Shown here in pieces: positions 738 through 51,811 of a DNA stretch of 51,970 nt. The number at the start of each line of letters is the position of its first letter. Positions within the stretch are counted from its first letter, which is position 1. The DNA is from an uncultured Gammaproteobacteria bacterium. GTDB lineage: Bacteria > Patescibacteriota > Patescibacteriia > Buchananbacterales > UBA6539. Where the stretch lies: positions 1,336-53,305 of the forward strand of contig CAZINP010000004.1 of NCBI GenBank assembly GCA_964540635.1. The letters are read 5' to 3'. A program made the position numbers and the translations under genes. Below the pieces are notes generated by a model. It was not told the DNA's origin, made no database searches, and saw only the letters and a list, made by a program, of their open reading frames with translations.

Positions 738-766
738 TTGACAATTTTAACAAAAAAGAGTATAAT
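738..766 (+). promoter_or_regulatory. Consensus sigma70 promoter
   Basis: TTGACA (738-743), 17 nt, TATAAT (761-766). Confidence 0.85.
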
Positions 767-841
767 TATTCGTTGTATCTTGGTTTGGTGTCTTCAGCCG
801 GGCGCCGGGTACAACAAAACCCAAAAAAAAGGAGAATTGCA

Positions 842-1087
842 GTGTCGAAGGTAATGAACAGCCGGGGCATTTGTCTCGGTCTCCAACAGGCTGTTGTTTT
901 GGCCGAGGCGGCCACGAGTTTGGCCGACCTCAAGGCCGAACCAAAGGCCCCACTTCAGCCTGAGGGCCGCAAGTGTCAATGCTGCGGCAGCTTGCTGTCG
1001 CAGTACAATCCCGGTCGGGTCTGCCACCCGTGCCGGGAGGCTGGATTTTTCGGCCGGTTCAAGCCGACCAAGGTAGCCGCCTTTTAA
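842..1087 (+). CDS. Small Cys4 zinc-finger-like protein 1
   Basis: AAAAGGAG (827-834) 7 nt before in-frame GTG 842; motif CQCCGSLLSQYNPGRVCHPC. Confidence 0.7.
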   Translation: MSKVMNSRGICLGLQQAVVLAEAATSLADLKAEPKAPLQPEGRKCQCCGSLLSQYNPGRVCHPCREAGFFGRFKPTKVAAF

Positions 1088-1152
1088 GGCGGCAATCGTT
1101 CGTTTTTTTTTCGGCGCGAGGCATCCTGTCTCGCGCTTTGACTTTTTCTTTT
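1076..1152 (+). terminator. Two hairpins with U tracts between the Zn-finger ORFs
   Basis: GCCGCCTT-TT-AAGGCGGC (1076-1093); GCGCGAGGCA-TCC-TGTCTCGCGC (1114-1136) followed by TTTGACTTTTTCTTTT. Confidence 0.55.
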
Positions 1153-1170
1153 ACTATCAAGGAGGTGTGT

Positions 1171-1344
1171 ATGAAAAGGAATGAAGAAGGCAGAAAAAAA
1201 ATTCCCTCACCCGCCAGTTCGGTTAAGGGTGGCAAACCGAAAAGGATTGAAAAGGATCGGTTTTGCCAAGGCCCGGGGTGCAGAACCAAGCTCTCGCCTT
1301 ACAATTTGACCAGCTTATGCTCAGTTTGCCGGTCAAAAAAGTAG
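1171..1344 (+). CDS. Small basic Cys4 zinc-finger-like protein 2 (57 aa)
   Basis: AAGGAGGT directly upstream of ATG 1171; motif CQGPGCRTKLSPYNLTSLCSVC. Confidence 0.75.
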   Translation: MKRNEEGRKKIPSPASSVKGGKPKRIEKDRFCQGPGCRTKLSPYNLTSLCSVCRSKK

Positions 1345-1370
1345 TATATAGCCGCCAATTCAGCGGTTTG

Positions 1371-1398
1371 GACCGAAACCCTTCGGTCTTTTTTATTT
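1371..1398 (+). terminator. Intrinsic terminator
   Basis: GACCGAA-ACCC-TTCGGTC followed by TTTTTTATTT. Confidence 0.8.
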
Positions 1399-10932: not shown

Positions 10933-10960
10933 AAAAAAAGCTGCCGGTGTGCCCAGCAGC
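10933..10960 (-). terminator. Terminator downstream of serA
   Basis: Minus strand GCTGCTGG-GCACA-CCGGCAGC followed by T7. Confidence 0.8.
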
Positions 10961-10978
10961 CGTTCGGTTTTTGCCAAT

Positions 10979-12295
10979 TTAGGCAATACGCGCAACCAAC
11001 CTGATTACGCCCGTGATTTTACCAAGTTCGTCTTGGACATCTGCTCCAACCATTTCGTTCAGGGAAATCATGGTGCATGCAAAACCTTGCTTGCCGGAGA
11101 TGGTGTGAAGAGTATCAATATTTTTCCCTCGCTGTGCAAAACAGTTTGAGATTTGTTGAATCATGCCCGGCTGATCAAGGTGAAATACGGTCAAGCTGAA
11201 TGCCCCTTGGCCCAAACACGCATCGGGGTAATTCACCCCGTTTTTGTGTTCGCCGCTATTCAGCCAAGCAACAACTTGGTTAGCACCCATTGTGGCGCAG
11301 CGCGATTCAGATTCAATTGTCGCCGCGCCGATATGGGGCAGGCAAAGGGTGTTGGGCAAAGAAAAAATGGGATGGTTTGGATCATCAACATCAGAGGCAT
11401 AGCCGCTGATAAGCGGGTTTTTTCCGGTCATGCCCTGGTGCAAAGCATCCAGATCAACAATGCCGGCTCTGGCCAGGTTCAAGACCCTGGGTTTTTGTTG
11501 GCACAAAGCAATTTGATCGCTGCCAAACAGACCTATTGTTTTGGAATTTAAGGGCACGTGAACAGTGACAAAGTCTGAGTGCGCCAGAACATCCGCAAGA
11601 TTGGTGCGCATTACGCCCTCAACTTCGCGGGTAGGGCAAGGGTCAAAACCCAAAACTTTCATCCCCAAGCCCATGGCTCTGGTGCAGACCTTAGCGCCGA
11701 TAAACCCGGCGCAACCGATCACGCCCATAGTTTTACCATAGAGCTCGGTACCAATATACCCGGATTTTTTTAGCGTGTGCCCGGTGATGGCGTCGCTAAT
11801 CATTTTGTTGAATTGAATCCTGGAACTGGCATCGTCAATGGAAAAAACGATGTCACTTTTTAATTGCGAAAGCGCCAAAATTGCGCCGGCATTTTTTGCC
11901 GCCAAGGCCACATTGTGGGATAAGGCCATGGCGCACAGAATTGTTTTTTCCGCCACCGAGGTGGAGTTTTGGCCGGGAGTATTCTGAACCAGAATTCCGT
12001 TTTCGCAAGCGGCGATCAAATCAATGTTGTCTGTGCCTGCTCCGAAGCGAACAATCAACTCAACGCCATGCTCGCGCAAAATCGTAAGGGCTTCCTTGTT
12101 CAGGGTGGTGCCACTTCTCAAACAAACTGCCCAAATGTGGCCACCATTGATCTCAAGCGAGTCAAGAAAGTTTTTCAACGTCTGAGCGTTGTCTTTGAAA
12201 CCAAAAGCGGTTTCTACCACCTCAAGTCCGGCCGACTCAAGAATCGGCCTTGCCTCAGGCCCGATGCCGTCAAGAAGTAAGACATGTTTTTCCAT
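10979..12295 (-). CDS. serA: D-3-phosphoglycerate dehydrogenase with C-terminal ACT domain
   Basis: RFGAGTDNID, NTPGQNSTSVAE, GTELYGKTMGVIG, DFVTVHVPL, NLARAGIVD, PHIGAAT; ACT HLDQPG...NI; purine-rich SD AAAGGAAAAG. Confidence 0.85.
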   Translation of the reverse strand: MEKHVLLLDGIGPEARPILESAGLEVVETAFGFKDNAQTLKNFLDSLEINGGHIWAVCLRSGTTLNKEALTILREHGVELIVRFGAGTDNIDLIAACENGILVQNTPGQNSTSVAEKTILCAMALSHNVALAAKNAGAILALSQLKSDIVFSIDDASSRIQFNKMISDAITGHTLKKSGYIGTELYGKTMGVIGCAGFIGAKVCTRAMGLGMKVLGFDPCPTREVEGVMRTNLADVLAHSDFVTVHVPLNSKTIGLFGSDQIALCQQKPRVLNLARAGIVDLDALHQGMTGKNPLISGYASDVDDPNHPIFSLPNTLCLPHIGAATIESESRCATMGANQVVAWLNSGEHKNGVNYPDACLGQGAFSLTVFHLDQPGMIQQISNCFAQRGKNIDTLHTISGKQGFACTMISLNEMVGADVQDELGKITGVIRLVARIA

Positions 12296-12330
12296 TTTCT
12301 TTTCCTTTTCAGGTTGATTGTAAAAGGTCG

Positions 12331-12370
12331 ATATAAATAAACAAACCTTCCGGAGGCGGAAGGCTTGTTT
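12331..12370 (-). terminator. Attenuator terminator in serA leader
   Basis: AAACAAGCCTTCCG-CCTC-CGGAAGGTTTGTTT (14 bp, one G-U) followed by ATTTATAT; lies between leader peptide and serA SD. Confidence 0.75.
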
Positions 12371-12388
12371 CTATCTAAATTCTTTAAT

Positions 12389-12469
12389 TTAGGCAAAAAT
12401 AAACCTTGCGCCAGGAAAAGGGCATGAGCCGGAACTTGATGAGGTTAAGGCAAAAAGGTTTGTTTTCAT
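12389..12469 (-). CDS. Ser-rich leader peptide (26 aa) of serA
   Basis: ATG AAA ACA AAC CTT TTT GCC TTA ACC TCA TCA AGT TCC GGC TCA TGC ... GCC TAA = MKTNLFALTSSSSGSCPFPGARFIFA; starts 6 nt after the -10 box. Confidence 0.75.
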   Translation of the reverse strand: MKTNLFALTSSSSGSCPFPGARFIFA

Positions 12470-12475
12470 ATTTTT

Positions 12476-12503
12476 ATCTTAGCAGAAAAATAATTGTTGT
12501 CAA
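12476..12503 (-). promoter_or_regulatory. sigma70 promoter for leader peptide/serA
   Basis: TTGACA (12503-12498), 16 nt, TGc-TAAGAT (12481-12476). Confidence 0.75.
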
Positions 12504-13105: not shown

Positions 13106-13134
13106 TTGACAAAATTAAAAAATTAAATTAATAT
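13106..13134 (+). promoter_or_regulatory. sigma70 promoter divergent from rpsP
   Basis: TTGACA, 17 nt, TAATAT; followed at about +1 by hairpin GTTCGAC-CCGAAGC-GTCGAAC. Confidence 0.7.
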
Positions 13135-13202
13135 TTTTCAGTTCGACCCGAAGCGTCGAACAAAAACCCAACGACCGAACCGGAAAGAAATTGAAAGGGG
13201 GG

Positions 13203-13415
13203 ATGCGAATGAACAATGCCCGCGCTTCCTAGGGTTTTGCTGGGTTTGGCCCGCCTGAACTGACTATCCATGTTTCAGGTAAACAAATCCAGCGCATAAA
13301 GCACGCTTGCGCGTGCGCCGGTAAAGGAAGGTATATAATCAAGTTGCTGCTCCCTGACAGCCGCGATGAGATTTTGCCGGCTTATCCCGGAAATAAAAAA
13401 AGAGGCTTTTGCTAG
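13203..13415 (+). pseudogene. 70-codon frame interrupted by TAG at codon 10 (pseudogene, micropeptide or ncRNA)
   Basis: AAAGGGGGG upstream; MRMNNARAS*GFAGFGPPELTIHVSGKQIQRIKHACACAGKGRYIIKLLLPDSRDEILPAYPGNKKRGFC*. Confidence 0.4.
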
Positions 13416-13438
13416 GTTGGCCTCAATTAACCTGGACT

Positions 13439-13471
13439 GACCCAATGTCGTTTCGGCAGCGGGTCTTTTTT
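13439..13471 (+). terminator. Intrinsic terminator of the 13.1-13.5 kb unit
   Basis: GACCC-AA-TGTCG-TTT-CGGCA-GC-GGGTC followed by T6. Confidence 0.7.
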
Positions 13472-15821
13472 ATTGTCTGACAACTTTTTCAGCTTCTTCT
13501 ATTTTTAGACTGATGAGTTTGGAGATGCTGTCATCAGACATGGTCACGCCATATAAAATATTAGCCTGATGCATGGTGGCGCGATTGTGAGTAATAACGA
13601 TGAATTGAGTTTTGTGTGAAAGCTCGGCGATAATTGAAGAATATCTTTGTGAATTGGCCTCATCCAAGGCGGCATCAACTTCGTCTAAAATAACAAAAGG
13701 GGATGGGTTGTTGGCAATCACGGCACAAATTAAAGCAATGGAAGCAAGAGACCTCTCGCCGCCGGACAGCATAGTAATGGCTGAAACTTTTTTGCCGGGT
13801 GGTTGAGCGGCAATATCAATCCCGGTGATTATTTTGCCGGTCTTTTTCTTTAAAAATCTTTTTGGACTCATTTTTTCTTCGGCATCCTCAAGCATCTTTA
13901 ATATTCCGGGTTGAGCCGTCTCCGCTTCTTGACCATCAGCCAGGGCTTGTTCACTTTCTGTTATTGTTGGCGCTTCTTTATTTTCGCTTAAATCTTCTTT
14001 AAGTAAAATTAAATCCGCTTTGCCGCCGCCAAAAAGAATCTTAAAAAATTTGGAGAACTCCTTGCTGATATCTTTAAAGGCATGGTCAAATTGAGTTTGA
14101 ATTTTTTCGTCCAAATCATTAATAATTTTTTCCAAGGAGTTGATTGATTTTCTCAGGTCCTCGGCTTGTTCGGAAAGGAAGTCGTGGCGTTCCTTTGTTT
14201 CGGTATATTCTTTGACGGTTTCCGGATCAACGCCGCCGATCAATTCAAGTTGGTGTTTTAAGTTAAGCATTTTTTGCTTGACTTCTTGTTCATTAATTAC
14301 TTCAGCTTTATATTCAGCCAGCCATTCCATATTGCCGGTTTCTTCTTTGATTTCTTGTTTTAAATCTTGTTGGTGGGTTTCAAGCCTGGCCATTTCCACA
14401 CGCAAGCTTGAGGCTTGATTGTTTAAGCGATTGTATTCATCTTGCTTGGCCGTAATTTGTCTTTGTAAATCAAAAAATTTGCCTTTCTTTTGTTCTTCGG
14501 CTTGATTGAAGTTTTCAATTTCTTTTCGGGCAGATTCCAAGCGAGAATCAATGCCGGACATTTCTTTTTCAATATCGGCCAATTCTTCCAGCAAGCCTTT
14601 ATCAATTTCGCCCTGGACCTTTTCTTTGATTTTTGGATTTTCCAGTTGCTCAAGCAAATCCTTGATTAAACCGCCAAGCTCTCTGGCTTCCTCGCGGCAT
14701 TGAGAAAATTTGGCCAAATCTTTTTGATCCAAATTTAGAATCATTTTTTCATGCAATTCGGTGATGGCCTTTAACTTCTCAATAATTTCGTGGACCTGCA
14801 GGGGAACGGCTTTTTGAATTAATCGCTGCTTGTTAACTTCAATTTTATTTTTTAAAATCAGCTGTTCTTCGCGCAATTTATTTTTTTCGTCTAAGATTAT
14901 TTGATATTTTTGTTGAAGCTGCCCGAAAACCGCGCTTCTTGAATCTTCTTTTTCCAGCGAGCGCAGATGGTTTTGTGATTCTCTGAGTTCAGCTTCTTTT
15001 TTTGTCAATTCTTTTTCAATTTCTTTTAATTGCGGTTTGACCTGCCCGATTTTTGTTTCCAAATTATGCCAAAGAAAACCATAATATTGCCAAGCAACTT
15101 CTTTTAATTCAATTTCTATTTTTTCACGCCTTTCCAGGCGCTTAACCTGGCGAGTTAGAGAGTTAAGGCGAGGAGTGATTTCGGTTAAGAGCGCGTCAAT
15201 TTGGCGAAGATTGTTCCAAGCGCTTTCTAATTTATTAATTGATTGATCGCGTTTGATTTGATATGATTTCACGCCCACTGCTTCGTCAAAATAGTCTTTT
15301 CTTTCGCCGGGGGTTGCCATAATTACTTGATCAATTGAACCCTGAGAAATTATGGAATAACTTTTTTGGCCAAAATTTGATTTGGCCACCAACATTAAAA
15401 TATCTTGAAGCCTGACTTTGTTTTTATTGATTAAATATTCGCTTTCGCCGTTGCGGTAAAGCCGGCGCGAAATTATGACTTGAGGGTATTCAATTGGCAT
15501 GGCCCCGTCCTCGTTGTTTAAGGTCATGGAGACCGAAGCCAAACCCAAGCGCGATTTTTTGTCTGAACCGGCGAAAATTATGTCCTCGGATTTTTTACCG
15601 CGAAGGCTTTTAAGAGATTGTTCGCCCAAAACCCAACGCACCGCATCAACCAAATTACTTTTGCCTGAGCCATTAGGACCGACAATGCAAGCAATGCCGC
15701 AACCGCCGCCTTTTTGTGTGTCGGAAACTAAAAGACAGCCTTTATCAGGCCGAGGAAATTCTAGAACGGTTTTTTGGGCAAACGACTTGAAGCCCTGGAT
15801 TTCAATTCTTTCTAAAAACAT
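13470..15821 (-). CDS. smc: SMC-family chromosome segregation ATPase, short (783 aa), no recognisable hinge
   Basis: LERIEIQGFKSF, GPNGSGKSN, ISRRLYRNGESEYLIN, MLSGGERSL, ILDEVDAALDEAN, QFIVITH. Confidence 0.9.
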   Translation of the reverse strand: MFLERIEIQGFKSFAQKTVLEFPRPDKGCLLVSDTQKGGGCGIACIVGPNGSGKSNLVDAVRWVLGEQSLKSLRGKKSEDIIFAGSDKKSRLGLASVSMTLNNEDGAMPIEYPQVIISRRLYRNGESEYLINKNKVRLQDILMLVAKSNFGQKSYSIISQGSIDQVIMATPGERKDYFDEAVGVKSYQIKRDQSINKLESAWNNLRQIDALLTEITPRLNSLTRQVKRLERREKIEIELKEVAWQYYGFLWHNLETKIGQVKPQLKEIEKELTKKEAELRESQNHLRSLEKEDSRSAVFGQLQQKYQIILDEKNKLREEQLILKNKIEVNKQRLIQKAVPLQVHEIIEKLKAITELHEKMILNLDQKDLAKFSQCREEARELGGLIKDLLEQLENPKIKEKVQGEIDKGLLEELADIEKEMSGIDSRLESARKEIENFNQAEEQKKGKFFDLQRQITAKQDEYNRLNNQASSLRVEMARLETHQQDLKQEIKEETGNMEWLAEYKAEVINEQEVKQKMLNLKHQLELIGGVDPETVKEYTETKERHDFLSEQAEDLRKSINSLEKIINDLDEKIQTQFDHAFKDISKEFSKFFKILFGGGKADLILLKEDLSENKEAPTITESEQALADGQEAETAQPGILKMLEDAEEKMSPKRFLKKKTGKIITGIDIAAQPPGKKVSAITMLSGGERSLASIALICAVIANNPSPFVILDEVDAALDEANSQRYSSIIAELSHKTQFIVITHNRATMHQANILYGVTMSDDSISKLISLKIEEAEKVVRQ

Positions 15822-15877
15822 GTTTATATTTTAGCATTTTTTATTACAGACAAGCAAGAGAGTAGCTGTATTTTTGA

Positions 15878-15906
15878 TTGACAAAAACCTTTAAAATTAA
15901 TAAGAT
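15878..15906 (+). promoter_or_regulatory. sigma70 promoter for dapA
   Basis: TTGACA, 17 nt, TAAGAT. Confidence 0.75.
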
Positions 15907-15972
15907 AATTAATCAAAAGGAGTTGTTCTTTTCCCATTGTCTTTACCCTCAACCCGCAGGAGACTTGAATCT

Positions 15973-17037: not shown

Positions 17038-17060
17038 GGCGCACTCCCTTTGGAACCATC

Positions 17061-17096
17061 CGCCCTCCAAGCGCATAGCAAGGAGGGTGTTTTTTT
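17061..17096 (+). terminator. dapA terminator overlapping polA promoter
   Basis: CGCCCTCC...GGAGGGTG plus T7; overlaps TAGCAA-17-TATAAT. Confidence 0.7.
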
Positions 17097-19857: not shown

Positions 19858-19858
19858 A

Positions 19859-21142: not shown

Positions 21143-21212
21143 CCATTGATTTTTGTAAACAAATCTGATATTGTTATCAATCAAGCCCGCTGACAAGATA
21201 AGGAGACTTCCA

Positions 21213-21578
21213 ATGTCAAAGGTGTTGATCGATTATAAGGTTCTGGCAGGTGACTGCCAAATATTGACCGATGTTTTCGGTCTAATCAGGAGTTGGTTGG
21301 GAGAAAAAAGTGCAGCCGAGCAGGCCAGAATAATTGGTTTAATTTGCGCCAAGCGCGATGAGCTCGGCTGGTACACGCCAATTGGGCAAGAGCTCCTTGA
21401 AATTCTTCTTGATTATTTTCAAGAAGCCGTGGTGGGTAATGCGCAGGAGGGTGAGGGCATTGACCTTGGTGAATTAGCCAGTCAAATTGCCGGGCGCTTA
21501 GAGACCCGCCTTTACTCTGTCAGGCCCGGGTCATACCCGCCAAAATCCGCCAGAAACACAGGCGCTGAAATGCAATAA
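21213..21578 (+). CDS. Hypothetical helical protein (121 aa)
   Basis: AAGGAG 7 nt before ATG 21213; TTGATT-17-TATTGT promoter at 21146-21174. Confidence 0.7.
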   Translation: MSKVLIDYKVLAGDCQILTDVFGLIRSWLGEKSAAEQARIIGLICAKRDELGWYTPIGQELLEILLDYFQEAVVGNAQEGEGIDLGELASQIAGRLETRLYSVRPGSYPPKSARNTGAEMQ

Positions 21579-21605
21579 TCAGCGCTTTTTTATTTTTGCA
21601 TAATA

Positions 21606-21634: not shown

Positions 21635-21661
21635 TATTAGTCGCTCTTTTCAGCTATATTT

Positions 21662-21756: not shown

Positions 21757-21769
21757 AAGGAGTGTGGAA

Positions 21770-36300: not shown

Positions 36301-36707
36301 GTAAGATCTATATGCTCAAGCTTAACCATATGGTTGAAGATAAGATTCATCAGCGCTCAATCGGTCCTTACTCGTTGATTACTCAGCAGCCGCTTGGCGG
36401 TAAAGCGCAATTTGGCGGCCAGCGTTTCGGGGAAATGGAAGTCTGGGCGCTGGAAGCTTATGGCGCGGCCAATATTTTGCAAGAAATTTTGACCATAAAA
36501 TCAGACGACGTTCCCGGCCGTAGCAAGGCTTATGAATCAATTATTAAAGGTGAACCAATAAAGAGGTTAAATATTCCTGAATCCTTCAATGTTTTATTGA
36601 GAGAGCTCAACGGCTTATGTCTCAATATTGATTTGGTGGGTGGCACAAAGGTCGAAGATGAAACGGATAGTAAACCAGAAGAGGGACAGGAATCAAATCC
36701 GGCTTAA
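33324..36707 (+). CDS. rpoB: RNA polymerase beta subunit
   Basis: [46 protein letters not shown]; ATG 33324 preferred over GTG 33258. Confidence 0.98.
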
Positions 36708-36733
36708 TTAATTATATATTAAAAGATACTTAT

Positions 36734-39700
36734 ATGATTGAAGAAAAAAATATCCCGGACTTCAATGCCTTGAAAATCACCTTGGCTTCACCCATGAAGA
36801 TTCATGAGTGGTCTCACGGCGAAGTAACCAAGCCGGAAACAATCAATTACCGCACGCAAAAGCCGGAAAAAGACGGGTTGTTTTGCGAACGCATTTTCGG
36901 CCCTTCAAAAGATTGGGAGTGTTATTGCGGCAAATACAAAAAGATTCGTTATAAGGGCATAGTTTGCGATAAATGCGGCGTTGAAGTAACGCGCTCGGTT
37001 GTTCGTCGTGAACGCATGGGTCATATTGATTTGGCTTGCCCAGCTTCTCATATTTGGTTTTTGCGCGGCGTGCCTTCCAAGATTGGTTTGATGTTGGATT
37101 TGTCACCGCAAGCCATGGAAAAAGTAATTTACTTTGCTGATTTTATCATTACTCATGTAGATGAAGATTTAAAGAAAGAAACTCTTGAACAAATCAGGCA
37201 GGAATTTAAAGCCAAGCGCAAAAAGATTGATGCGGATTTTGCTCAACAACTGAATATGGTTAAAAGCCGCTTGGGTCAAGGCAAAAAAGAAATGACCCCA
37301 GAGCAGCTTGAAGATGAAATGAATAAAGAAACAACAGTTTATGAAGAAGCAAAAAAGGAAAAAATTAAAGAGCTTGAACAGATTTTAAAAATTGTTGAGC
37401 AGGAATTAAAAGAATTAAAACCTCTAAAGATAATCTCCGAACACGTTTATCAGGATTTATCTTTAAAGTACGGCCCGATTTTTGAGGCCGACATTGGCGC
37501 CAGCGCCATTAGACATCTTTTGGAAAAGATTGATTTGGAAAAATTGGTTGCCGAATTGGAACAAGAAATCCTAACCAATTTTACTCCGGCCAGAGAAAAG
37601 ATTCTAAAGCGCTTAAGATTAGCCAGAAATTTTTATAAAAATAATTTGAGACCCGAGTGGATGATTTTAACGGTTATTCCGGTTATTCCGCCGGATTTGA
37701 GACCGATGGTTCCGCTTGATGGTGGTCGTTTTGCCACTTCTGATTTGAATGATTTATATCGTCGTATCATTAATCGCAACAATCGCTTGAAGCAATTGCA
37801 GGAATTGAATGCGCCAGAAGTAATTACCAGAAATGAAAAAAGAATGTTGCAGGAAGCGGTTGACGCTTTGATTGATAACAGTGCCAGACACGGCAAGACA
37901 GTTGTGGCTTCAACCGGCCAAAAGCGTATGTTAAAATCATTGGCCGATATTCTGAAAGGTAAGCAGGGGCGTTTCCGTCAGAACTTGTTGGGTAAACGTA
38001 TTGACTATTCCGGCCGTAGCGTTATCGTTGTTGGTCCTAAATTAAAATTGGGCGAATGCGGTATTCCTAAAAGAATGGCTTTGGAATTATTTAAACCGTT
38101 TGTCATTTCTCAATTAATCAAACGCGAATACGTTCACAATGTCAGATCGGCCAACAGATTTATTGAAGGCGGCCACAATGAAGTTTGGGATATCTTAGAC
38201 GAAATTGTTAAAGACGCTTACGTAATGCTTAACCGCGCTCCGACCTTGCATCGTTTGGGTATTCAGGCTTTTAAGCCGGTTTTGATTGAAGGCAAAGCCA
38301 TTCAGGTTCATCCGATGGTTTGCGAAGCGTTTAATGCTGACTTTGACGGCGACCAGATGGCTGTCCACGTCCCTTTAACTGAAAAGGCTAAGTGGGAAGC
38401 GGGAAATTTGATGTTAGCTTCTAAGAACTTGCTTAAACCGGCAACCGGCGATCCGGTTGCGCGTCCGACCAAAGATATGGTTTGGGGCAGTTATTATATG
38501 ACTACGGTCAGAGAGCCCGCTTCGGGAAAAATCAGAGTGTTTGCCGATCCGCAAGAAGCGATTTTGGCTTATCAACTCAAACATATTTCCATGCAAGATA
38601 AGATTAAGGTGAAAGCCGACGCCTGGATGAAAAAGAAATTAGAATTGGCCGGAATGAAAGAGAATATTGTTGAAACTTCGGTTGGCAATATTTTATTTAA
38701 TCAGGCCTTACCCGATGATTATCAGTATAAGAATAAGATTATGGATAGCAAGCAGTTGCGTATAATTGTAGCCGACTTCTTGGAAAAATATGAATTGGAA
38801 AAGGTGGCGGTTTTACTTGATAAGATTAAAGATCTCGGGTTGAAATATTTAACCAGATCAGGTTACTCCTGGGGTATGGGCGATATGCCGCGCGTAGAAA
38901 AGAAAGCTGAAATTATCAAGCAGGGTGAAGTGGCGGTGGAAGAGGTGGAAGGTCAATATGAAATGGGTTTGCTAACCGACAGTGAGCGCCACACCAAGAT
39001 TATTGAAATTTGGATGAACACCAAAGAAAGTATTGTTAAACTGTCTCAAAATACTCTTGATCAGTTTGGTCCGATTTATACCATGGTTGAATCAGGCGCT
39101 AGAGGTTCTTGGAGTCAGTTGATTCAGATTATTGGTATGAAAGGCTTGGTAACCAACCCGGCCGGCGACATTATGGAATTGCCGGTGAAAGGTAACTTCC
39201 AGGAAGGTTTTGATGTTTTGGAATACTTCATCTCTACTCACGGTGCTAGAAAAGGTTTATCCGATACCGCCCTAAGAACCGCCAGCGCCGGTTATTTGAC
39301 CAGAAGATTAATTGATGTTTCTCAAGAAATCGTAGTTACCGAAGAAGACTGCGGAGATGATCAAGGCCTGGTTTTGACTAAAAAAGAAAGTGAAGCCATC
39401 GGCTTGAATTTGGCTGACAGAATCAAGGGCCGCTTCTTGGTGGAAGACTTGATTGATCCAAAAACCAAGAAAGTGGTTGTTTCCAGCAAGGAAATGATTG
39501 ATTCAAATTTGGTCCAGAAAATTAAAGATATGGATTTGCCCGAGATAAAAGTTCGTTCGGTTTTGACTTGCAGAACCAAACGCGGCTGCTGTCAAAAATG
39601 CTATGGTTGGGATCTGGCCTACAACCGGCCGGTATCAGTCGGTACGGCTGTCGGTATTATCGCCGCCCAAAGTATTGGTGAACCGGGCACTCAGCTGACG

Positions 39701-40657
39701 ATGAGAACCTTCCATACCGGTGGTGTGGCCGGACTTGATATCACTCAAGGTTTACCGAGAGTTGAAGAAATTTTTGAAGCCAGGCCGCCAAAGAATCGCG
39801 CTTTTATTTCCGAAGTTGACGGCTTAGTAAAGATTGAAGAAGCTAAACGCGAAGAACAGAAACTTAATCGCCATCGCACCGTTAAGATTATTCATGAAAG
39901 TTTGGATCAGGACATCTATCCCTTGGGTGCTGACAAGAAAAAAGCTTCTGAAATTTTGATTAAAGACGGTCAGCACGTTAAACGCGAAGAAGCGATATTT
40001 GTTAATAAGAGCGGTGAAAAAGTTTTGGCCAAACGAGAAGGCGTGGCTAAGATTGAAAAAGACTGCATTAGCGTTCAAACCAAAGAACAAAAAGCGACCG
40101 CCTATCAAATTCCGCCGGAATTTCATATTTTGGTTAAAGACGGTGATTTAATTGCCAAGGGTCAGCCCTTAACTAACGGCAGTCTTGATCTAAAACAATT
40201 ATTTACTTTGCAGGGCAAAGAAAGAACCAGTAAATATATTGTTGATGAGATCCAGCAAATTTACTCTTCGCAAGGCCAGAAATTGGATAATCGTCATATT
40301 GAATTAATTGTTAAGCAGATGTTTTCTCGAGTTGAAATTACTGACCCGGGTGATACAGAATTGCTTTCCGGTCAGCGCTTGGAAAAATCAGAGCTGGCTG
40401 AAATCAACGAACTTGCCGCAGCAAACAACGGCAAGCCGGCAGTTGGTGAAGAATTGCTTTTGGGTGTTTCCAAGGTTTCTTTGTCCACTTCCAGCTTTTT
40501 ATCTGCGGCTTCATTTCAAGAGACCTCAAGAGTGCTTATTAATGCTGCGGTTGAAGGCAGGATCGATTATCTCAGGGGCTTAAAAGAAAATGTAATTATC
40601 GGCAGATTGATTCCGGCTGGTACCGGTTTTAAGCCAACAACCGAAGAAAAAAATTAG
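36734..40657 (+). CDS. rpoC: RNA polymerase beta' subunit
   Basis: KPETINYRT, NADFDGDQMAVH, QLTMRTFHTGG, GLKENVIIG. Confidence 0.98.
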   Translation: MIEEKNIPDFNALKITLASPMKIHEWSHGEVTKPETINYRTQKPEKDGLFCERIFGPSKDWECYCGKYKKIRYKGIVCDKCGVEVTRSVVRRERMGHIDLACPASHIWFLRGVPSKIGLMLDLSPQAMEKVIYFADFIITHVDEDLKKETLEQIRQEFKAKRKKIDADFAQQLNMVKSRLGQGKKEMTPEQLEDEMNKETTVYEEAKKEKIKELEQILKIVEQELKELKPLKIISEHVYQDLSLKYGPIFEADIGASAIRHLLEKIDLEKLVAELEQEILTNFTPAREKILKRLRLARNFYKNNLRPEWMILTVIPVIPPDLRPMVPLDGGRFATSDLNDLYRRIINRNNRLKQLQELNAPEVITRNEKRMLQEAVDALIDNSARHGKTVVASTGQKRMLKSLADILKGKQGRFRQNLLGKRIDYSGRSVIVVGPKLKLGECGIPKRMALELFKPFVISQLIKREYVHNVRSANRFIEGGHNEVWDILDEIVKDAYVMLNRAPTLHRLGIQAFKPVLIEGKAIQVHPMVCEAFNADFDGDQMAVHVPLTEKAKWEAGNLMLASKNLLKPATGDPVARPTKDMVWGSYYMTTVREPASGKIRVFADPQEAILAYQLKHISMQDKIKVKADAWMKKKLELAGMKENIVETSVGNILFNQALPDDYQYKNKIMDSKQLRIIVADFLEKYELEKVAVLLDKIKDLGLKYLTRSGYSWGMGDMPRVEKKAEIIKQGEVAVEEVEGQYEMGLLTDSERHTKIIEIWMNTKESIVKLSQNTLDQFGPIYTMVESGARGSWSQLIQIIGMKGLVTNPAGDIMELPVKGNFQEGFDVLEYFISTHGARKGLSDTALRTASAGYLTRRLIDVSQEIVVTEEDCGDDQGLVLTKKESEAIGLNLADRIKGRFLVEDLIDPKTKKVVVSSKEMIDSNLVQKIKDMDLPEIKVRSVLTCRTKRGCCQKCYGWDLAYNRPVSVGTAVGIIAAQSIGEPGTQLTMRTFHTGGVAGLDITQGLPRVEEIFEARPPKNRAFISEVDGLVKIEEAKREEQKLNRHRTVKIIHESLDQDIYPLGADKKKASEILIKDGQHVKREEAIFVNKSGEKVLAKREGVAKIEKDCISVQTKEQKATAYQIPPEFHILVKDGDLIAKGQPLTNGSLDLKQLFTLQGKERTSKYIVDEIQQIYSSQGQKLDNRHIELIVKQMFSRVEITDPGDTELLSGQRLEKSELAEINELAAANNGKPAVGEELLLGVSKVSLSTSSFLSAASFQETSRVLINAAVEGRIDYLRGLKENVIIGRLIPAGTGFKPTTEEKN

Positions 40658-40705: not shown

Positions 40706-40758
40706 AAATAAAAAAAGTGCCAACGGTGGGACCGTTGGCAAGAAGGCCGGCGAAAAGA

Positions 40759-41268
40759 TTACCAGACCCGATTTTCAGCCAGCATTGCGCCGAGGCGCTG
40801 GTCAAAGGTTTGAATTAGAAGGCTCAGCTTTGGATCGCACACGTGCTGAGCTTCGAAGTGAATTCTGACCTGAGCCCGACTTATTGCCTCGTGAATCCTG
40901 TCGTTAAGGGTTGTGGGCACATACGATCCCTGGCAAGACTCAAGAACTCGCTCTTTATTCGAAATCCAGTTCGGCGATGTTTTTTCCCAGCCGGGCATTA
41001 TTTTTTCCATTGCCCTGATAATTCCTAGGTCTTTCTGGTCTGTGCCCAGCTCCCGACCGATTTCGATTTTTTCTTCAATTTTGCCCTTGGTTTTCTCTCT
41101 GAACGCATAATGGGCAAAGACGATCGAAAAGTTTTCGTCGTCATGGATAACACTGGTAAGCAGGGCGAGGCGAACTCTTCTGGTCTCAGGGAAAATTAGC
41201 GCGCGAACAATCACGCGCCTGGAAGAAATTTCCAGGATTTTGGGGATTGATTCGTACTCTTTTGGCAT
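40759..41268 (-). CDS. Hypothetical protein (169 aa)
   Basis: GGAGG 5 nt before ATG; own promoter; hairpin TGCCAACGGT/ACCGTTGGCA plus T tract downstream. Confidence 0.7.
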   Translation of the reverse strand: MPKEYESIPKILEISSRRVIVRALIFPETRRVRLALLTSVIHDDENFSIVFAHYAFREKTKGKIEEKIEIGRELGTDQKDLGIIRAMEKIMPGWEKTSPNWISNKERVLESCQGSYVPTTLNDRIHEAISRAQVRIHFEAQHVCDPKLSLLIQTFDQRLGAMLAENRVW

Positions 41269-41397
41269 TTTTCCTCCAATTGCTAGGCATTAAGCCATTG
41301 CTATGGTTTGGGTTAAGGAACACAAAAAGCCGATTGCCAAAAAAACTGATTTACGGCTACGGCTCAAACAAACAAGGAAACAAAGAACAGATAAAAA

Positions 41398-41476
41398 ATA
41401 TTAACAAAAAAGTGAATAATTGTCAATATTTTGAGGAAAAAAGGGATTTTACGCCCGGCGGGTTTTATGCTAAAAT
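41398..41476. promoter_or_regulatory. Divergent promoters (169-aa gene and ftsK)
   Basis: Minus TTGACA-17-TAATAT (41426-41398); plus TTTACG-17-TAAAAT (41448-41476). Confidence 0.7.
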
Positions 41477-48100: not shown

Positions 48101-48172
48101 TTGACTAATTTATAGACTTCTGATACTTTGGAGTCATTCGTTTCTTTAGTCGACAAAAAGGAGAAATGCACC

Positions 48173-48607
48173 GTGGAAAAAAGGAAAAGAAAGAAAAAAG
48201 TTTTTACAGTTTTGGTTGGCGGGGCTGGAATGTATAATATTACCGCCGTCTTGAGCAAAATTGGCCTGGAAGTTTCTTTGGCCACCGAGCCGCAAAGGCT
48301 TATGGAATTGGCTTCAGCCGGGAATTATCAAGCTATAGTTTTGGCGGATAATATTTTTCTGGCTGAATGCGCCGGCCGAAAAGATTTGGCCGAAAACCGT
48401 TTCCTGTGGCTCTTGGCCGAATTAGAGAAAATCGAAAAAGCTGGAGCCAAAAAAATCTGGTTGATTACGCCCAGAAAGAAACAGGAAGCTTGGAACATTT
48501 TTGCCAGATTTGAGATGATTTATCAAGTTGTTGGCGGTAGGTCAACAGTAGCTTTTGCCAGCAGCCTTAAAAATTGGCTTGAGGTCAATCAATCGGTCAA
48601 GTCATAA
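48173..48607 (+). CDS. Atypical stand-alone receiver (CheY-like) domain protein
   Basis: AAAAGGAG before in-frame GTG 48173; GLEVSLATEPQRLMELASAGNYQAIVLAD and KIWLIT fit the receiver pattern; acidic pocket and Lys not seen. Confidence 0.55.
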   Translation: MEKRKRKKKVFTVLVGGAGMYNITAVLSKIGLEVSLATEPQRLMELASAGNYQAIVLADNIFLAECAGRKDLAENRFLWLLAELEKIEKAGAKKIWLITPRKKQEAWNIFARFEMIYQVVGGRSTVAFASSLKNWLEVNQSVKS

Positions 48608-48690
48608 AAATTAATGATTTGAACACTGTTCTTTCATTAAGAAGCATTTTGCTTCTTTTTTATTTTTAAACTCTAAGGTATAATTAAAAT

Positions 48691-49806
48691 ATGAAATACG
48701 TTTTTATTCTCGGCCGAAACGCCAAATTATCCGCCGCTGAAATCAAGGCGATTTTACCAAATTCAAAAATCTTGTCTGAAACAGATATTTTTTTGATTTT
48801 GGAAAACGAAAATTTTGAGGCAAAAAAAATGCTCAATCGTCTTGGCGGCACAATAAAGATTGGTGAGGTGGTTGCCGAAGATCAAAGCTCAGAATATAAG
48901 GAAATTATAATTGAAAATTTAAAAAATAATCCTCAAGAAAACAAATTAAATTTTGGGGTTAGCTTCTACGGTACCAAACCCTGGAAGTTGGGTATGGAAA
49001 TTAAAGGAGAATTAAAGGCACAGGGTGTGAGTTGTCGTTTAGTAATCAGCCGCGATCAAGCCTTATCATCAGTGGTGGTGTCAAAAAATAAGGTTCAGGA
49101 GTTTTTGGTTTTAGGGAAAAAATATTTGGGCAAAACTTTAGCTGTGCAAGAATTTGAAGAATACTCAGCTAGAGATTACGGTCGTCCGGGACGCGATTTG
49201 GTTTCGGGTATGATGCCGCCCAAATTGGCAAAGATTATGATCAATCTTTCTCAAGCAACCAAAGATATGATTTTGCTTGATCCATTTTGTGGTTCCGGCA
49301 CGGTTATTCAAGAAGCGCTTTTGATGGGCTATCAAAATATTATTGGTACCGATCTTTCCGAGAAAGCAATTAAGGATACAAAGCAAAATTTAGATTGGCT
49401 AAAAAATAGAGGCTATAATTTTTCTGATAAAAATTATAAGATTCAAATTTGCGACGTCAGAGATTTGTCAAAAAAAATTAAAGAAGCGGATGTGATTGTA
49501 ACCGAGCCTTTTTTGGGGCCGCCGCTTAAAGGCAGGGAGAGTCTGGTTCAAGTCAAAAAAATTGTTCAAGATCTTGGTGATTTATATCTGAAAGCTTTTA
49601 CTGAGTTTAAAAAGGTATTAAAGCCCAATGGCAGGGTTGTAATAATTTTTCCGTCTTTTCGGGTTAGTGGAGATATTCTGGAGTTGCCGATTTTGGATAA
49701 AATTGAGAATATGAATTTTACCAAGCTCAATCAAGATAAACTAATTTATAGTCGCCCCAACCAAATGGTTTGGCGCCAGATTAATATTTTTCAAAAAGAA
49801 AAATAA
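48691..49806 (+). CDS. Trm11/UPF0020-type RNA methyltransferase
   Basis: MMPPKLAKIMINL, LLDPFCGSGT, IIGTDL, IVTEPFLG. Confidence 0.8.
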   Translation: MKYVFILGRNAKLSAAEIKAILPNSKILSETDIFLILENENFEAKKMLNRLGGTIKIGEVVAEDQSSEYKEIIIENLKNNPQENKLNFGVSFYGTKPWKLGMEIKGELKAQGVSCRLVISRDQALSSVVVSKNKVQEFLVLGKKYLGKTLAVQEFEEYSARDYGRPGRDLVSGMMPPKLAKIMINLSQATKDMILLDPFCGSGTVIQEALLMGYQNIIGTDLSEKAIKDTKQNLDWLKNRGYNFSDKNYKIQICDVRDLSKKIKEADVIVTEPFLGPPLKGRESLVQVKKIVQDLGDLYLKAFTEFKKVLKPNGRVVIIFPSFRVSGDILELPILDKIENMNFTKLNQDKLIYSRPNQMVWRQINIFQKEK

Positions 49807-49825
49807 ATAAATTATTAATAGCAAT

Positions 49826-49870
49826 AAAAAAACTCCGCGGCCGCCCGAAGGCAAGCGGAGCTGTTTTTTT
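49826..49870. terminator. Bidirectional terminator
   Basis: A7-CTCCGC...GCC-CGAA-GGC...GCGGAG-CTG-T tract. Confidence 0.7.
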
Positions 49871-51706
49871 TCAAAAGTTCTTGGCCTGAAATCTTTCGAT
49901 ATCAAGCTGATGATTTTGTAGGGCCCGTGTGATTTCTTTACCGCAACGCATAATCATGCTGCGGTTCAGACCGCGACGAATGATTTCGTCGATTGTCGTT
50001 TGTCCGTAGACAACGGCACTCATTGCCTGATAAGCCAATGGGCTCAAACCTTGTTGAAGGGCAAGGTCGCGTATGGCTTCGGTTTCCACCGCGCCGCGCG
50101 TGGCAATCAGAGTTTTAAGTTCCGGTGAAGGCGTGAGCAATTCCGGAATCATGATGCGAGGCAAATAGCCTTTGTTGCACTCTTTGCAGCCATCTAAGTT
50201 GGCTTCACGAACAAAGATGTCATACTGGATTGGCCGCGGTTCAATGTAACCGCCGACCAGACCTTGGATGAGGTCATTGCCAAGGATTTTTTTGGAACAG
50301 TGAGGACAAACTTTTCTGACCAGTCGTTGAGACATGATTGCCACCAGTGAAGCGGCAATTGAGGCAGCATCAACTTTTAGATCGTGTAAGCGTGTAATTG
50401 AGCTTACCGTATCGGGTGCGTGCAACGAGGTCAGAACCATATGGCCGGTCAAAGCGGCCTGAATGGCGGTTTCGGCCGTTTCCTCGTCGCGTACCTCGCC
50501 GACCAAAATCACGTTTGGATCCTGGCGCATCAGGGCGCGAAGGATTACGGCAAACGTGCGGCCGATACGTCGGTCAACTTCATTTTGAACAATGCCGGGC
50601 AAGACCACTTCGATTGGGTCTTCAACGGTGATGATTTTTGTCTCAACAGAGTTGAGATAATGAATCAGAGCATAAAGCGTTGTGGTTTTGCCGCAACCGG
50701 TAGGTCCGGCCAAGATAATCAAACCCTGTGATTGTTCTAGGGCAGTGATAAGCCTGCCTTTGACGTCATGCTGGGGAACGGCCTGTTCCAATCGCATAAC
50801 GTTGCCTTGGCTTTTTAGCAATCGGGCAACAACATTTTGGCGTTCGCAGCCTGGGGTGACAAAAGATAGGCGAAGCTCATAGCCTTCAAGCTGCTCGCGG
50901 AATGGCGCAATTTGCGGGAAGTCTGTAAAGAGGCGATCGTTGAACGCCACTTTGCCATCCTGGGGCATTCTTTTTTCCTCAACTTTCATCTTGGTTAGAA
51001 CTTTGATTGAGGAGGCCAGGCGAATCAAGAAAGACTTGGGCAGGATGTAATTTCCAACCTGCATAATTCCTTGTACCCGGAAACGAATTCGTCCGGCGTT
51101 TTTTTTGCTCAATTCGTCGCCCAACGGAGACTGTAAAATAATGGGCGCCGGCAAGTAGTCGTCATTTTCGATGTGGATGTCCGAAGCCCCAAGGGCAATG
51201 GCCTTAAGGACGATTCCGATAAAAGCCAAAATCGGCTCTTCGTTTTCAATTTCACCAAGATACGATCGTCTCTTTTCTTGGCTTGAAATCAATCTCTTCT
51301 CGACAATCGTTCGAAAGATGTGTTCGGGTATCACCAAAAAGGTGCGTCTGGTTTTTGATTCATCCATATCCGCTGTTCGAAGAAATTCTTCGATGTGGTT
51401 GAATAAGCCCGTGGCTTCATTTTTCGTTCCATCTAACCGGCGCGCACAGATGCCAATCAAATGGATACCGTGCTCATCTGCCAAGAGAGGCAGGAGCTCT
51501 TCGGCCATCATGGCGCCAAGATTGCTTTTTTCCGGACCTTCCATTAGGTCAGGTGCCGAGAGATCAACCTCTCTTATGAGCGGCTCCAGGTCAACATAAC
51601 GATCTTCCATCAAGACGGTTGCGGGTAAGAACTCGCGAATTTCTTGATGTAGATTTTTTGCCTCGTTGATTGAATCAACGATACTCCGCCTGTTCTCGTC
51701 AGTCAT
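49871..51706 (-). CDS. GspE/PilB-family secretion/pilus ATPase
   Basis: AGPTGCGKTTT, IITVEDPIE, LMRQDPNVILVGEVRD, TSLHA, CPHC...CKEC; GGAGG 8 nt before ATG 51706; TGA stop. Confidence 0.9.
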   Translation of the reverse strand: MTDENRRSIVDSINEAKNLHQEIREFLPATVLMEDRYVDLEPLIREVDLSAPDLMEGPEKSNLGAMMAEELLPLLADEHGIHLIGICARRLDGTKNEATGLFNHIEEFLRTADMDESKTRRTFLVIPEHIFRTIVEKRLISSQEKRRSYLGEIENEEPILAFIGIVLKAIALGASDIHIENDDYLPAPIILQSPLGDELSKKNAGRIRFRVQGIMQVGNYILPKSFLIRLASSIKVLTKMKVEEKRMPQDGKVAFNDRLFTDFPQIAPFREQLEGYELRLSFVTPGCERQNVVARLLKSQGNVMRLEQAVPQHDVKGRLITALEQSQGLIILAGPTGCGKTTTLYALIHYLNSVETKIITVEDPIEVVLPGIVQNEVDRRIGRTFAVILRALMRQDPNVILVGEVRDEETAETAIQAALTGHMVLTSLHAPDTVSSITRLHDLKVDAASIAASLVAIMSQRLVRKVCPHCSKKILGNDLIQGLVGGYIEPRPIQYDIFVREANLDGCKECNKGYLPRIMIPELLTPSPELKTLIATRGAVETEAIRDLALQQGLSPLAYQAMSAVVYGQTTIDEIIRRGLNRSMIMRCGKEITRALQNHQLDIERFQAKNF

Positions 51707-51811
51707 TATTCGTTCCTCCAATCTATCGTGTTGTAGGGTTCAGGGTGCTTAAGGATAATTCAATTTAAGCACTCATATTCTTATATATTTTTACCAATAA
51801 GTCAAGCAAAT

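Follow-up and report, generated by a model that had tools for sequence, protein, structure and literature searches.

In this work we describe a division in translation initiation within a single 51,970-nucleotide stretch of DNA from an ultra-small bacterium, hereafter the window (contig CAZINP010000004.1 of assembly GCA_964540635.1, positions 1,336 to 53,305). Most of its genes start without a Shine–Dalgarno (SD) sequence, and a minority of stand-alone, single-gene units, which we call cassettes, carry one. An earlier note on this DNA had pointed to the division and read it either as repeated single-gene acquisition or as a separately regulated gene class read through the anti-SD of the ribosome.

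Gene Content of the Window

The window has a GC content of 41.5%. Because its PolA is 79–70% identical to those of Candidatus Buchananbacteria and "Patescibacteria group" metagenome-assembled genomes, it is, on sequence grounds, a chromosome segment of a Buchananbacteria-like patescibacterium (candidate phyla radiation, CPR). Pfam and NCBIfam scans returned a backbone consisting of trmD (partial), KhpA, rpsP, SMC, polA, holA, rpsT, bactofilin, a diacylglycerol kinase (DAGK)-like gene, ileS, NIF3, ruvA, a Mur ligase, rpoB, rpoC, ftsK, a RodZ-like gene, recA, efp, rpsR, ssb, rpsF, and a methyltransferase. The window also encodes a surface protein of 2853 aa with LVIVD repeats. The window holds no tRNAs, an Rfam scan over its whole length (gathering and E-value thresholds) returned no riboswitch, leader, or rRNA, and exact-protein look-ups of rpsT and rpsR gave no match.

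Two Kinds of Start in the Window

All 10 stand-alone accessory genes carry an SD core (GGAG, GAGG, or AGGA at positions -20 to -4), compared with 1 of the 26 other genes (Fisher p = 4e-8). Their anti-SD duplex energies range from -5.6 to -12.7 kcal/mol, with a mean of -8.2 kcal/mol versus -0.7 kcal/mol for the others. In the lone nonaccessory gene with an SD core, rpsR, the GGAG is at least 17 nt upstream of the start and thus too far away to act. GC content at third codon positions (GC3) is 0.45–0.72 in the accessory genes versus 0.30–0.49 in the rest, and GC correlates with SD strength across the window (Spearman -0.50). The start context differs too, as a U directly before the start codon, U(-1), is found in 2 of the 10 accessory genes versus 21 of the 26 others (p = 0.0013). 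Three AT-rich nonhousekeeping genes, namely those for the giant LVIVD protein, a 427-aa membrane protein, and a 170-aa protein, also lack an SD, so the dividing line is not simply one between core and accessory genes.

A second, independent assembly (Logan SRR8925758, two contigs), from a strain that is about 98% identical, has the identical cassette layout, which excludes a chimeric assembly. The SD split in the window is confirmed as real and statistically strong.

The Cassettes

Each cassette has a sigma-70 promoter of the form TTGACA-N16–18-TAnnnT, a leader of 40–200 nt, and an intrinsic terminator. Several gene models in the window were corrected by reading its sequence, and the coordinates given here for the two small zinc-ribbon genes (ZnF1 and ZnF2) and for the start of the receiver-like gene are the corrected ones.

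ZnF1 and ZnF2 lie next to each other on the forward strand and are small paralogs with a common C-terminal zinc-ribbon motif, C-x2-4-C-x3-LS-x-YN-x5-6-C-x2-CR. The ZnF1 unit (738..1112) consists of a TTGACA-17-TATAAT promoter (738–766), the SD AAGGAG (829–834), an open reading frame (ORF) with a GTG start (842–1087; 81 aa, GC3 0.71), and a T-rich terminator; its product ends in a CxCC...LSQYN...CxxC zinc ribbon, and its anti-SD duplex energy is -8.7 kcal/mol. The ZnF2 unit (1113..1396) has the SD AAGGAGGTG (1159–1167), an ORF of 57 aa (1171–1344), and a terminator at 1371–1396, with a duplex energy of -12.7 kcal/mol.

The serA-like unit (10939..12503) is found on the reverse strand, with a promoter at 12476–12503, the weak SD AAAGGA, an ORF (10979–12295) encoding a 2-hydroxyacid dehydrogenase with an ACT domain, and a terminator at 10939–10961. 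Its leader (12296–12503, reverse strand, about 180 nt) contains a strong terminator-like hairpin followed by a T-run (12339–12370) upstream of the SD. This leader resembles an attenuator or riboswitch of a new type, and no Rfam family matched it.

A cassette-like unit without an intact ORF follows on the forward strand (13106..13470). It has a promoter (13106–13134), a C/A-rich leader, the sequence AAAGGGGGG, an ATG at 13204, an in-frame TAG after 9 codons, and about 250 nt of GC-rich sequence; past the TAG, the frame is open for about 60 codons. The TAG is kept in the 98% identical strain. The unit has no Rfam match and no protein homolog in the loci fetched from relatives, and it is either a decaying cassette or a noncoding RNA of about 330 nt (minimum free energy -110.7 kcal/mol).

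The dapA-like unit (15878..17096, forward) belongs to the DHDPS family, in its long form (type A). It has a promoter at 15878–15906, the SD AGGAG, and an ORF at 15973–17037 (GC3 0.60), and it ends in a hairpin and T-run that precede the polA promoter. Two hypothetical genes follow on the same strand. The unit of the 121-aa protein (21143..21600) carries the SD TAAGGAG, an ORF at 21213–21578, and a T-run terminator. The unit of the 406-aa protein (21606..23050) has a promoter at 21606–21634, a leader of about 130 nt, the SD AAGGAG, an ORF at 21770–22990, and a terminator at 23015–23040, and is the most GC-rich of all (GC 0.60, GC3 0.72). An AlphaFold2 model of the 406-aa protein, built from a 4-sequence alignment, had a mean pLDDT (predicted local distance difference test score) of 55 and was too poor for a fold search.

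On the reverse strand, the unit of a Cys-rich hypothetical protein of 108 aa (25882..26329) has a promoter at 26301–26329, the weak SD AAAGGA, an ORF at 25922–26248, and a terminator at 25882–25901. Its status as a real gene is the least certain among the cassettes, and it was left uncalled in the Logan strain. The unit of the 169-aa hypothetical protein (40718..41426, reverse) comprises a promoter at 41398–41426, a leader of about 130 nt, the SD GGAGG, an ORF at 40759–41268, and a terminator at 40718–40740. The receiver-like unit (48101..48665, forward; 144 aa) has a promoter-like sequence at 48101–48129, the SD AAGGAG, an ORF from the GTG at 48173 to 48607, and a terminator at 48639–48665. 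Last comes a pilB/gspE-like secretion ATPase unit (49833..51805, reverse) with a promoter-like sequence at 51777–51805, the SD GGAGG, an ORF at 49871–51706, and a terminator at 49833–49850. In strain SRR8925758 (locus L084, 1–1398), this last cassette was called as two ORFs (226 and 385 aa), with one alignment gap position relative to the window, owing to either a frameshift (an incipient pseudogene) or an assembly error.

The serA-like, dapA-like, and pilB-like products score under the NCBIfam equivalog cut-offs. No family in Pfam, NCBIfam, PHROG, or PADLOC matches the 121-, 406-, 108-, and 169-aa proteins or either of the two small zinc-ribbon proteins. Among the cassettes, PHROGs gave one match, on the serA-like gene, to a family without a stated function, PADLOC gave none, and viral contigs held no relatives of the 406-aa or 169-aa genes. 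A phage or defense origin was rejected on the strength of this single PHROG match and the empty PADLOC result. A shared leader motif, a C/A-rich "AACCC" tract before the SD, is seen in most cassettes of the window; it was dropped as a defining element when relatives showed only a weak C enrichment (0.20 versus 0.14).

What the earlier note had said of the window largely stands. Accessory ORFs with an SD and core genes without one are what we find, for 10 of the 11 ORFs that it listed; the eleventh, at 13194, is the one that stops at the TAG. Its line between core and accessory genes has to be redrawn around the three AT-rich nonhousekeeping genes. Its sampled GC values are exact (63.3% at 22141–22200 and 20% at 20581–20640), and its self-contained promoter–SD–ORF–terminator units are borne out by promoters and terminators at every cassette. 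It had reported neither integrase, transposase, attC-like repeat, nor target-site duplication, and reexamination likewise found none: no ORF of the window has an integrase or transposase domain, the cassettes have no flanking repeats in common, and the sole repeats in the window lie inside the giant surface protein.

Start Signals of the SD-Less Genes

The genes without an SD carry start signals of their own. Of 815 SD-less genes, 56 have a TAnAAT -10 hexamer with a gap of exactly 6 nt to the ATG, which is a sharp peak over the background count of about 5 at each position; a second, minor peak lies at a 9-nt gap. In the window, the SMC gene (15819..15833, reverse) has a TGcTAAAAT -10 box (15828–15833) exactly 6 nt before its ATG (15819–15821), and the methyltransferase gene (48679..48693, forward) has TATAAT (48679–48684) 6 nt before the ATG at 48691. 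The start of holA (23047..23087, forward) shows the wider spacing, as its TTGCCA-17-TAAAAT promoter ends 9 nt before the ATG at 23085, and there is no SD. Such a fixed gap of 6 (or 9) nt suggests that the mRNAs of many first genes are leaderless or nearly so. The rpoB–rpoC pair (33324..40657, forward) is representative of the SD-less backbone, with an A/U-rich upstream region, a U at -1, and no GGAG, the operon-internal rpoC start included.

Over the window and 70 Patescibacteria loci, the ATG is directly preceded by T in 63% of SD-less genes versus 31% of SD genes; among the SD-less, the share is 67% for first genes and 57% for operon-internal ones. This is the strongest context signal, as A at -3 is found in just 45% of SD-less genes, when A makes up about 40% of the background. 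Pairing of a U at -1 with A37 of the initiator tRNA can lengthen the codon–anticodon helix, which would favor SD-independent initiation. The region around the start (-30 to +33) is also less folded in SD-less than in SD-led genes (-5.6 versus -9.4 kcal/mol; p = 2e-10), and it is nearly unstructured when set against the inside of the same genes (-11 kcal/mol). There are two start grammars, then, not one plus noise, because the SD-less starts have their own -10 box spacing, T(-1), and unstructured region.

Recurrence in Relatives

For comparison, 80 polA neighborhoods were fetched from species-representative genomes, with one mechanical gene caller and one SD measure used throughout (individual loci are referred to by an L number). 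Across 81 polA loci with 1163 genes, an SD precedes 3% of the genes conserved in at least 10 loci versus 16–23% of rare or unique genes, and SD genes lie 3.7 GC points above the median of their locus (p = 1e-19). An independent replicate of 24 recA metagenome loci (RecA at least 70% identical) gave 3 of 115 conserved versus 23 of 182 rare genes with an SD (p = 0.0026), and there the absolute GC deviation is 0.062 for SD genes versus 0.030. Within the close clade, SMC, polA, holA, rpsT, bactofilin, DAGK, and rpsP are without an SD in every genome, and the genes between the core genes have AAGGAGG-type sites and a GC content that is 5–20 points higher. The SD split is thus lineage-wide.

AT-richness alone is not the explanation, since the core is still SD-less in relatives with 55–60% GC (L103, L106, and L109). 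Nor are the motifs chance occurrences: measured from the ATG, the 3' ends of GGAG cluster between -5 and -11 (39 of 236 genes versus about 0.5 per position elsewhere), and the top hexamers at -20 to -4, namely AAGGAG, AGGAGG, and GGAGGA, are the complement of CCUCCUU, which marks them as real SDs. The reverse of the compositional pattern in the window also occurs, as some SD-led slot genes of relatives are AT-richer than their host, with a GC of 0.32–0.37 versus about 0.45 (L090, 12060–14321; L098, 11224).

The SD-led genes in relatives include those for DHDPS, Fpg, glutamine amidotransferases, nitronate monooxygenase, TruB, PRPP synthetase, LexA, Fic, RhuM, PfkB, and ThiG. Their functions are mixed, mostly cytoplasmic enzymes and regulators, and do not form one pathway.

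As for the ribosome, the sole 16S rRNA end among the fetched loci is that of L015 (PolA 54% identical, with the same two-class pattern), where the anti-SD is the canonical CACCUCCUU and the 3' end reads GGATCACCTCCTTTCT.

Slots, Divergence, and Turnover

The serA-like, dapA-like, and 406-aa genes recur at matching inter-operon positions in as many as 14 genomes, and slots with SD-led genes in many relatives are KhpA–rpsP, SMC–polA, polA–holA, and recA–efp. Between SMC and polA, four genomes (the window, L003, L007, and L165) have a long type A DHDPS gene, seven (L004, L005, L006, L026, L166, L008, and L063) a shorter, Patescibacteria-only type B, and three (L001, L002, and L071) unrelated genes; that of L001, the closest relative, is an unrelated 157-aa SD gene. 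L004, L007, and L001 carry homologs of the 406-aa gene, likewise between polA and holA. The serA-like gene is syntenic in L026, L008, L165, and L166 at 27–51% identity.

Grouping the DHDPS proteins by all-against-all BLAST showed type B to be roughly congruent with PolA. L004 is incongruent, as its DHDPS groups with those of L008 and L063 and its PolA with the window clade. Type A is as close to sequences from Desulfobacterota, Thaumarchaeota, and Armatimonadota as to Buchananbacteria ones. Between L165 and the window, the cassettes are 44–51% identical and the flanking SMC, polA, and rpsP genes 69–79%, and the cassettes are about twice as diverged as their flanks. The SD itself is stable within a family. 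It is kept in 9 of 9 dapA-like genes after start correction, as well as in L165 and L166, and some of these genes have no GC3 excess (L006 and L008). A first-ATG rule had mis-set the starts in L004, L006, and L007, and correcting them strengthens the pattern.

At the strain level the picture is turned around. Synonymous differences between the two strains affect 1.2% of cassette codons versus 4.7% of core codons; they are absent from the dapA-like, 121-aa, 406-aa, and 169-aa genes and absent or almost absent from five cassettes. The nonsynonymous/synonymous ratio is 0.74 for cassettes versus 0.34 for the core. Being young within the species and old and divergent between species, the cassettes fit replacement and not steady fast evolution. 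As a sole explanation, fast-evolving vertical genes were rejected, given that the cassettes differ less than the core between strains.

One backbone gene also stands out in the strain comparison. Relative to L083, ileS (26395–29280) differs at 8.9% of nucleotides, with 84 nonsynonymous codons and 17 gap positions, and its neighbors at 0.5–4%. For strains that are otherwise about 98% identical, this resembles an imported divergent allele.

A search of 5.8 billion proteins gave best nonself matches of 43% identity for the 406-aa protein (three homologs only), 44–47% for the dapA-like, and 58% for the serA-like protein, the last from the clade of a syntenic relative. The best homologs outside are 33–47% identical, and no close outside donor was found among the proteins searched. 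Of the classical features of a genomic island, atypical composition is present, and mobility genes, tRNA-adjacent insertion, and direct repeats were not found. The classical sign of recent transfer, a close donor homolog together with absence from near relatives, fails, as the 98% identical strain has the cassettes too and their synteny extends to deep relatives.

These results bear on both proposals of the earlier note. It had suggested comparing SD frequency with gene conservation, and across the polA loci the classes are clearly unlike (3% versus 16–23%). Single-gene acquisition is borne out in part; it gains from the atypical composition, the patchy and swapped slots, the roughly twofold divergence, and the few synonymous strain differences. 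Less well supported is recent import from outside, in view of the distant outside homologs and of a cassette GC3 that tracks that of the host, and the synteny that would speak against acquisition is there for the serA-like, dapA-like, and 406-aa genes. The second proposal, a class read through the anti-SD, fits the lineage-wide and family-stable SD status.

Other Features of the Window

The gene for the giant LVIVD protein (1812–10373, forward; 2853 aa, secreted or surface) is AT-typical and SD-less and differs by 2.5% between the strains. It contains a large internal duplication of about 2.9 kb (e.g., 5097–5311 versus 8016–8230, 80% identical). Upstream of KhpA (10757–10918, reverse), an SD-less core gene, lies a promoter that agrees with the consensus at 12 of 12 positions (TTGACA-16-TATAAT with TG), and a structured leader of some 135 nt comes after it; the sole Rfam matches here are weak and sub-threshold (rsmX and istR) and overlap the 3' region of KhpA.

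For rpsT (24125–24484, reverse), the longest ORF has 119 aa versus 89 aa in orthologs, and the first residue in the Pfam match is 35. Translation probably begins at the ATG of codon 31 (M31), which is preceded by a TTGCCA-17-TATTCT promoter inside the annotated ORF. Upstream of rpsF (47518–47720, reverse), about 200 nt of relatively GC-rich noncoding sequence separate this gene from the promoter of a Zn-ribbon gene and could be a ribosomal-protein leader, for which Rfam gave no match. This Zn-ribbon gene (56 aa, 47884–48054) has no SD.

Comparison with Known Systems

SD-poor genomes (Bacteroidota and Cyanobacteria), genomes rich in leaderless mRNAs (PMC6028130), and single-gene horizontal transfer in Patescibacteria (PMC12455944) are already known. 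In a full-text search, the published literature gave no account of SD use divided between backbone and flexible genes, nor a report of a leaderless signature or U(-1) context in CPR bacteria.

The nearest parallel in initiation is offered by the Bacteroidota, where most genes are likewise SD-less with A/U-rich, unstructured starts, a small minority has a strong SD, and the anti-SD appears to be retained (here seen in L015). Reportedly, they make little use of the anti-SD, have an SD-led rpsU and an A-rich, Kozak-like start context, and sequester the anti-SD in a manner linked to bS21. The SD-led minority here is a compositionally distinct, stand-alone, flexible class, whereas theirs is a ribosomal autoregulatory gene, and the context here is a U at -1 with a leaderless-type -10 box, whereas theirs is an A at -3/-6. 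Their sequestration, moreover, involves bS21, which is often absent in Parcubacteria (PMC9297842).

Leaderless-rich genomes such as those of Actinobacteria and Deinococcus, the "group C" of GeneMarkS-2 (PMC6028130), likewise have many first genes whose -10 box stands a constant 6 nt before the start codon, with SD-led genes alongside. Their operon-internal genes mostly have an SD, however, whereas here internal core genes (rpoC, the murein ligase, and the RodZ-like gene) are SD-less too and SD use is tied to nonconserved, GC-shifted, monocistronic genes.

With regard to gene flow, Patescibacteria are known to have foreign segments the size of single genes, mostly exchanged within the Patescibacteria, for which competence was proposed as the route (Gios et al. 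2025, PMC12455944). Individually transferred single genes and a flexible genome are common to both accounts; ties of the transferred genes to an initiation signal, to fixed inter-operon slots, or to a lasting GC3 offset are not part of the published one. Replacement flexible islands (O-antigen loci and the marine "metagenomic islands") have the same conserved flanks, variable or divergent content, lack of an integrase, and incongruent gene trees, but they are multigene, whereas the units here are single genes of about 0.4–2 kb at many scattered slots, and recombination tracts would be presumed. Integron cassettes are compact single-ORF units between other genes as well, and differ in that those described here are dispersed, lack attC-like repeats, intI, and a common promoter, and each have their own promoter and terminator.

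Interpretation

With moderate confidence, we favor the reading that the SD-led genes are a flexible, self-sufficient class with turnover inside the phylum, set among backbone genes that are leaderless and SD-independent. The backbone comprises housekeeping genes and AT-rich, lineage-specific membrane and surface genes, all SD-less and with an A/U-rich, nearly unstructured start and a U before the AUG. The SD-led minority sits singly in the gaps between conserved operons, each gene with its own -35/-10 promoter, a leader of 40–200 nt, an AAGGAGG-type SD 5–10 nt before the start, and its own terminator, and with more structured leaders and starts and a higher GC3. Both modes would presumably be served by the same ribosome. 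The latter probably keeps a canonical anti-SD tail in this genome, because the SD sites are conserved in sequence and spacing, including 9-nt matches such as that of ZnF2.

Most likely, the cassettes have long resided in a gene pool of the Patescibacteria. Their replacement at conserved slots would proceed through DNA uptake and subsequent homologous recombination via the conserved flanking genes, with no need for an integrase. What a slot holds is often the same family, in a form much more diverged than its flanks, and sometimes another subtype or an unrelated gene. With its generic promoter, SD, and terminator, a cassette would be expressible in any recipient, and the SD would be necessary in cassettes because of their leader and GC-richer start region. 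Portability or regulation may be the reason for SD retention.

Several points weigh against this reading. The relatives were sampled in two chromosomal neighborhoods (polA and recA) of about 100 genomes and not over whole genomes. Leaderless transcription is read from promoter geometry only and the 16S 3' end solely from the distant L015; the anti-SD motif (CCTCCT) was detected in just 48% of Parcubacteria, being undetected mainly in those lacking uL1 (Tsurumaki et al., PMC9297842). Across 20 gene–genome pairs, cassette GC3 follows host core GC3 (slope 0.8, r = 0.71; host core GC3 30–58%) with an offset that is positive in 20 of 20 pairs (mean +0.15), which implies residence long enough to follow the mutational drift of the host, and a further factor that maintains the offset. 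The serA-like gene is one of 15 members of a clade-specific subfamily, and those that were sampled lie in the rpsP–KhpA slot of relatives. Taken together with the GC3 tracking, this fits long vertical residence under a sustained force at least as well as turnover, and turnover alone leaves unexplained why the offset is positive in nearly every case. Neither account fully explains the offset, and GC-biased gene conversion at recombination-prone slots is a candidate. Between the strains, lastly, the low-divergence tracts include cassettes but extend past their borders in places (one strain pair), the core itself is a mosaic (0.15–8.9%), so that the cassette–core contrast is regionally autocorrelated, and the 108-aa and receiver-like genes are not of low divergence.

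The main rival, which we consider unlikely, is a vertically inherited, separately regulated class of ancient residents in which selection keeps the SD, leaders, and GC3, for example because the class is switched through anti-SD availability, as is rpsU in Flavobacteriia; the excess divergence would then reflect fast evolution in situ. Much of the above agrees with it: the same families in the same slots in up to 14 genomes, an SD in all dapA-like genes read, including those with almost no GC3 excess (L006 and L008), the rough congruence of type B DHDPS with PolA, the confinement of the serA-like subfamily to its clade, and the uniformly positive, host-tracking GC3 offset. Long structured leaders, such as the serA-like one with its terminator-like hairpin, suggest regulation as well. 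On the other hand, vertical descent sits badly with patchy slots in which types A and B swap and the closest relative (L001) has an unrelated gene between SMC and polA, and with the L004 DHDPS that is incongruent with the PolA tree. A strain divergence below that of the core argues against fast evolution in situ, some SD genes of relatives are AT-richer than their host (L090), and functions as heterogeneous as DHDPS, Fpg, glutamine amidotransferase, LexA, Fic, RhuM, and others are not what a jointly regulated class would lead one to expect.

We regard as very unlikely a recent acquisition from GC-richer, SD-using donors outside the Patescibacteria, such as host bacteria, with SD and GC as un-ameliorated marks of the donor. 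A GC3 of up to 0.72 versus 0.39 in the core, an amino-acid make-up that is atypical for the genome, the five cassettes with no or almost no synonymous strain differences, and the equal nearness of type A DHDPS to Desulfobacterota, Thaumarchaeota, and Armatimonadota would all suit such an origin. Yet none of the 5.8 billion proteins exceeds 47% identity to the dapA-like, 43% to the 406-aa, or 58% to the serA-like protein, the cassettes are syntenic across deep relatives, and their GC3 tracks that of the host; the viral contigs, PADLOC, and the single PHROG match (on the serA-like gene) give no support either.

Pure biophysical compensation, by which a GC-rich gene folds its own start and so needs an SD that says nothing of origin or class, has in our estimate a slight probability at most. 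The more structured starts of SD genes (-9.4 versus -5.6 kcal/mol) and the correlation of GC with SD strength in the window (Spearman -0.50) are as it predicts, but L090 has SD genes with a lower GC than their host (0.32 and 0.37 versus about 0.45), the core is SD-less in the 55–60% GC relatives (L103, L106, and L109), dapA-like genes without a GC3 excess keep their SD, and stand-alone promoters, terminators, and slot positions are left unexplained. An artefact of wrong starts, chimeric metagenome assembly, or chance GGAG is effectively refuted, since the starts mis-set by the first-ATG rule (L004, L006, and L007) and probably in rpsT of the window (M31) are outweighed by the same layout in the independent 98% identical assembly, the sharp positional peak of GGAG, a pattern that grows stronger once starts are corrected, and core gene lengths that agree with Pfam models and orthologs.

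Future Perspective

Existing genomes allow the division to be tested directly, and for gene calling it has practical consequences. The gene finders and expression tools used on CPR bacteria assume one ribosome-binding-site model per genome; with two grammars, start codons, small genes, and expression are systematically mis-modeled for either class. The SD signal could in turn be a cheap, alignment-free marker for the flexible gene compartment of Patescibacteria, a phylum where the patchwork of metabolism poses a central open question. For the new genetic systems of Patescibacteria, our results suggest that leaderless and SD-led designs should both work and may behave differently. The lasting GC3 offset of syntenic genes, over a core GC3 of 30–58%, provides a clean natural test of what keeps composition off mutational equilibrium, with recombination and biased gene conversion on one side and selection on the other.

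A bolder proposal, which we hold to be quite unlikely, goes one step further. The Buchananbacteria-like lineage, and probably a larger share of the phylum, would keep a bipartite initiation code over evolutionary time, with SD-independent, leaderless starts at U(-1)AUG in the native backbone, canonical SD-led starts in a distinct class whose GC3 stays offset by about +0.15 (perhaps through selection or through GC-biased gene conversion at recombination-prone slots), and the accessory program switchable at translation, for instance through the availability of the anti-SD tail. If this is true, the cell could switch its whole accessory program at the level of translation.

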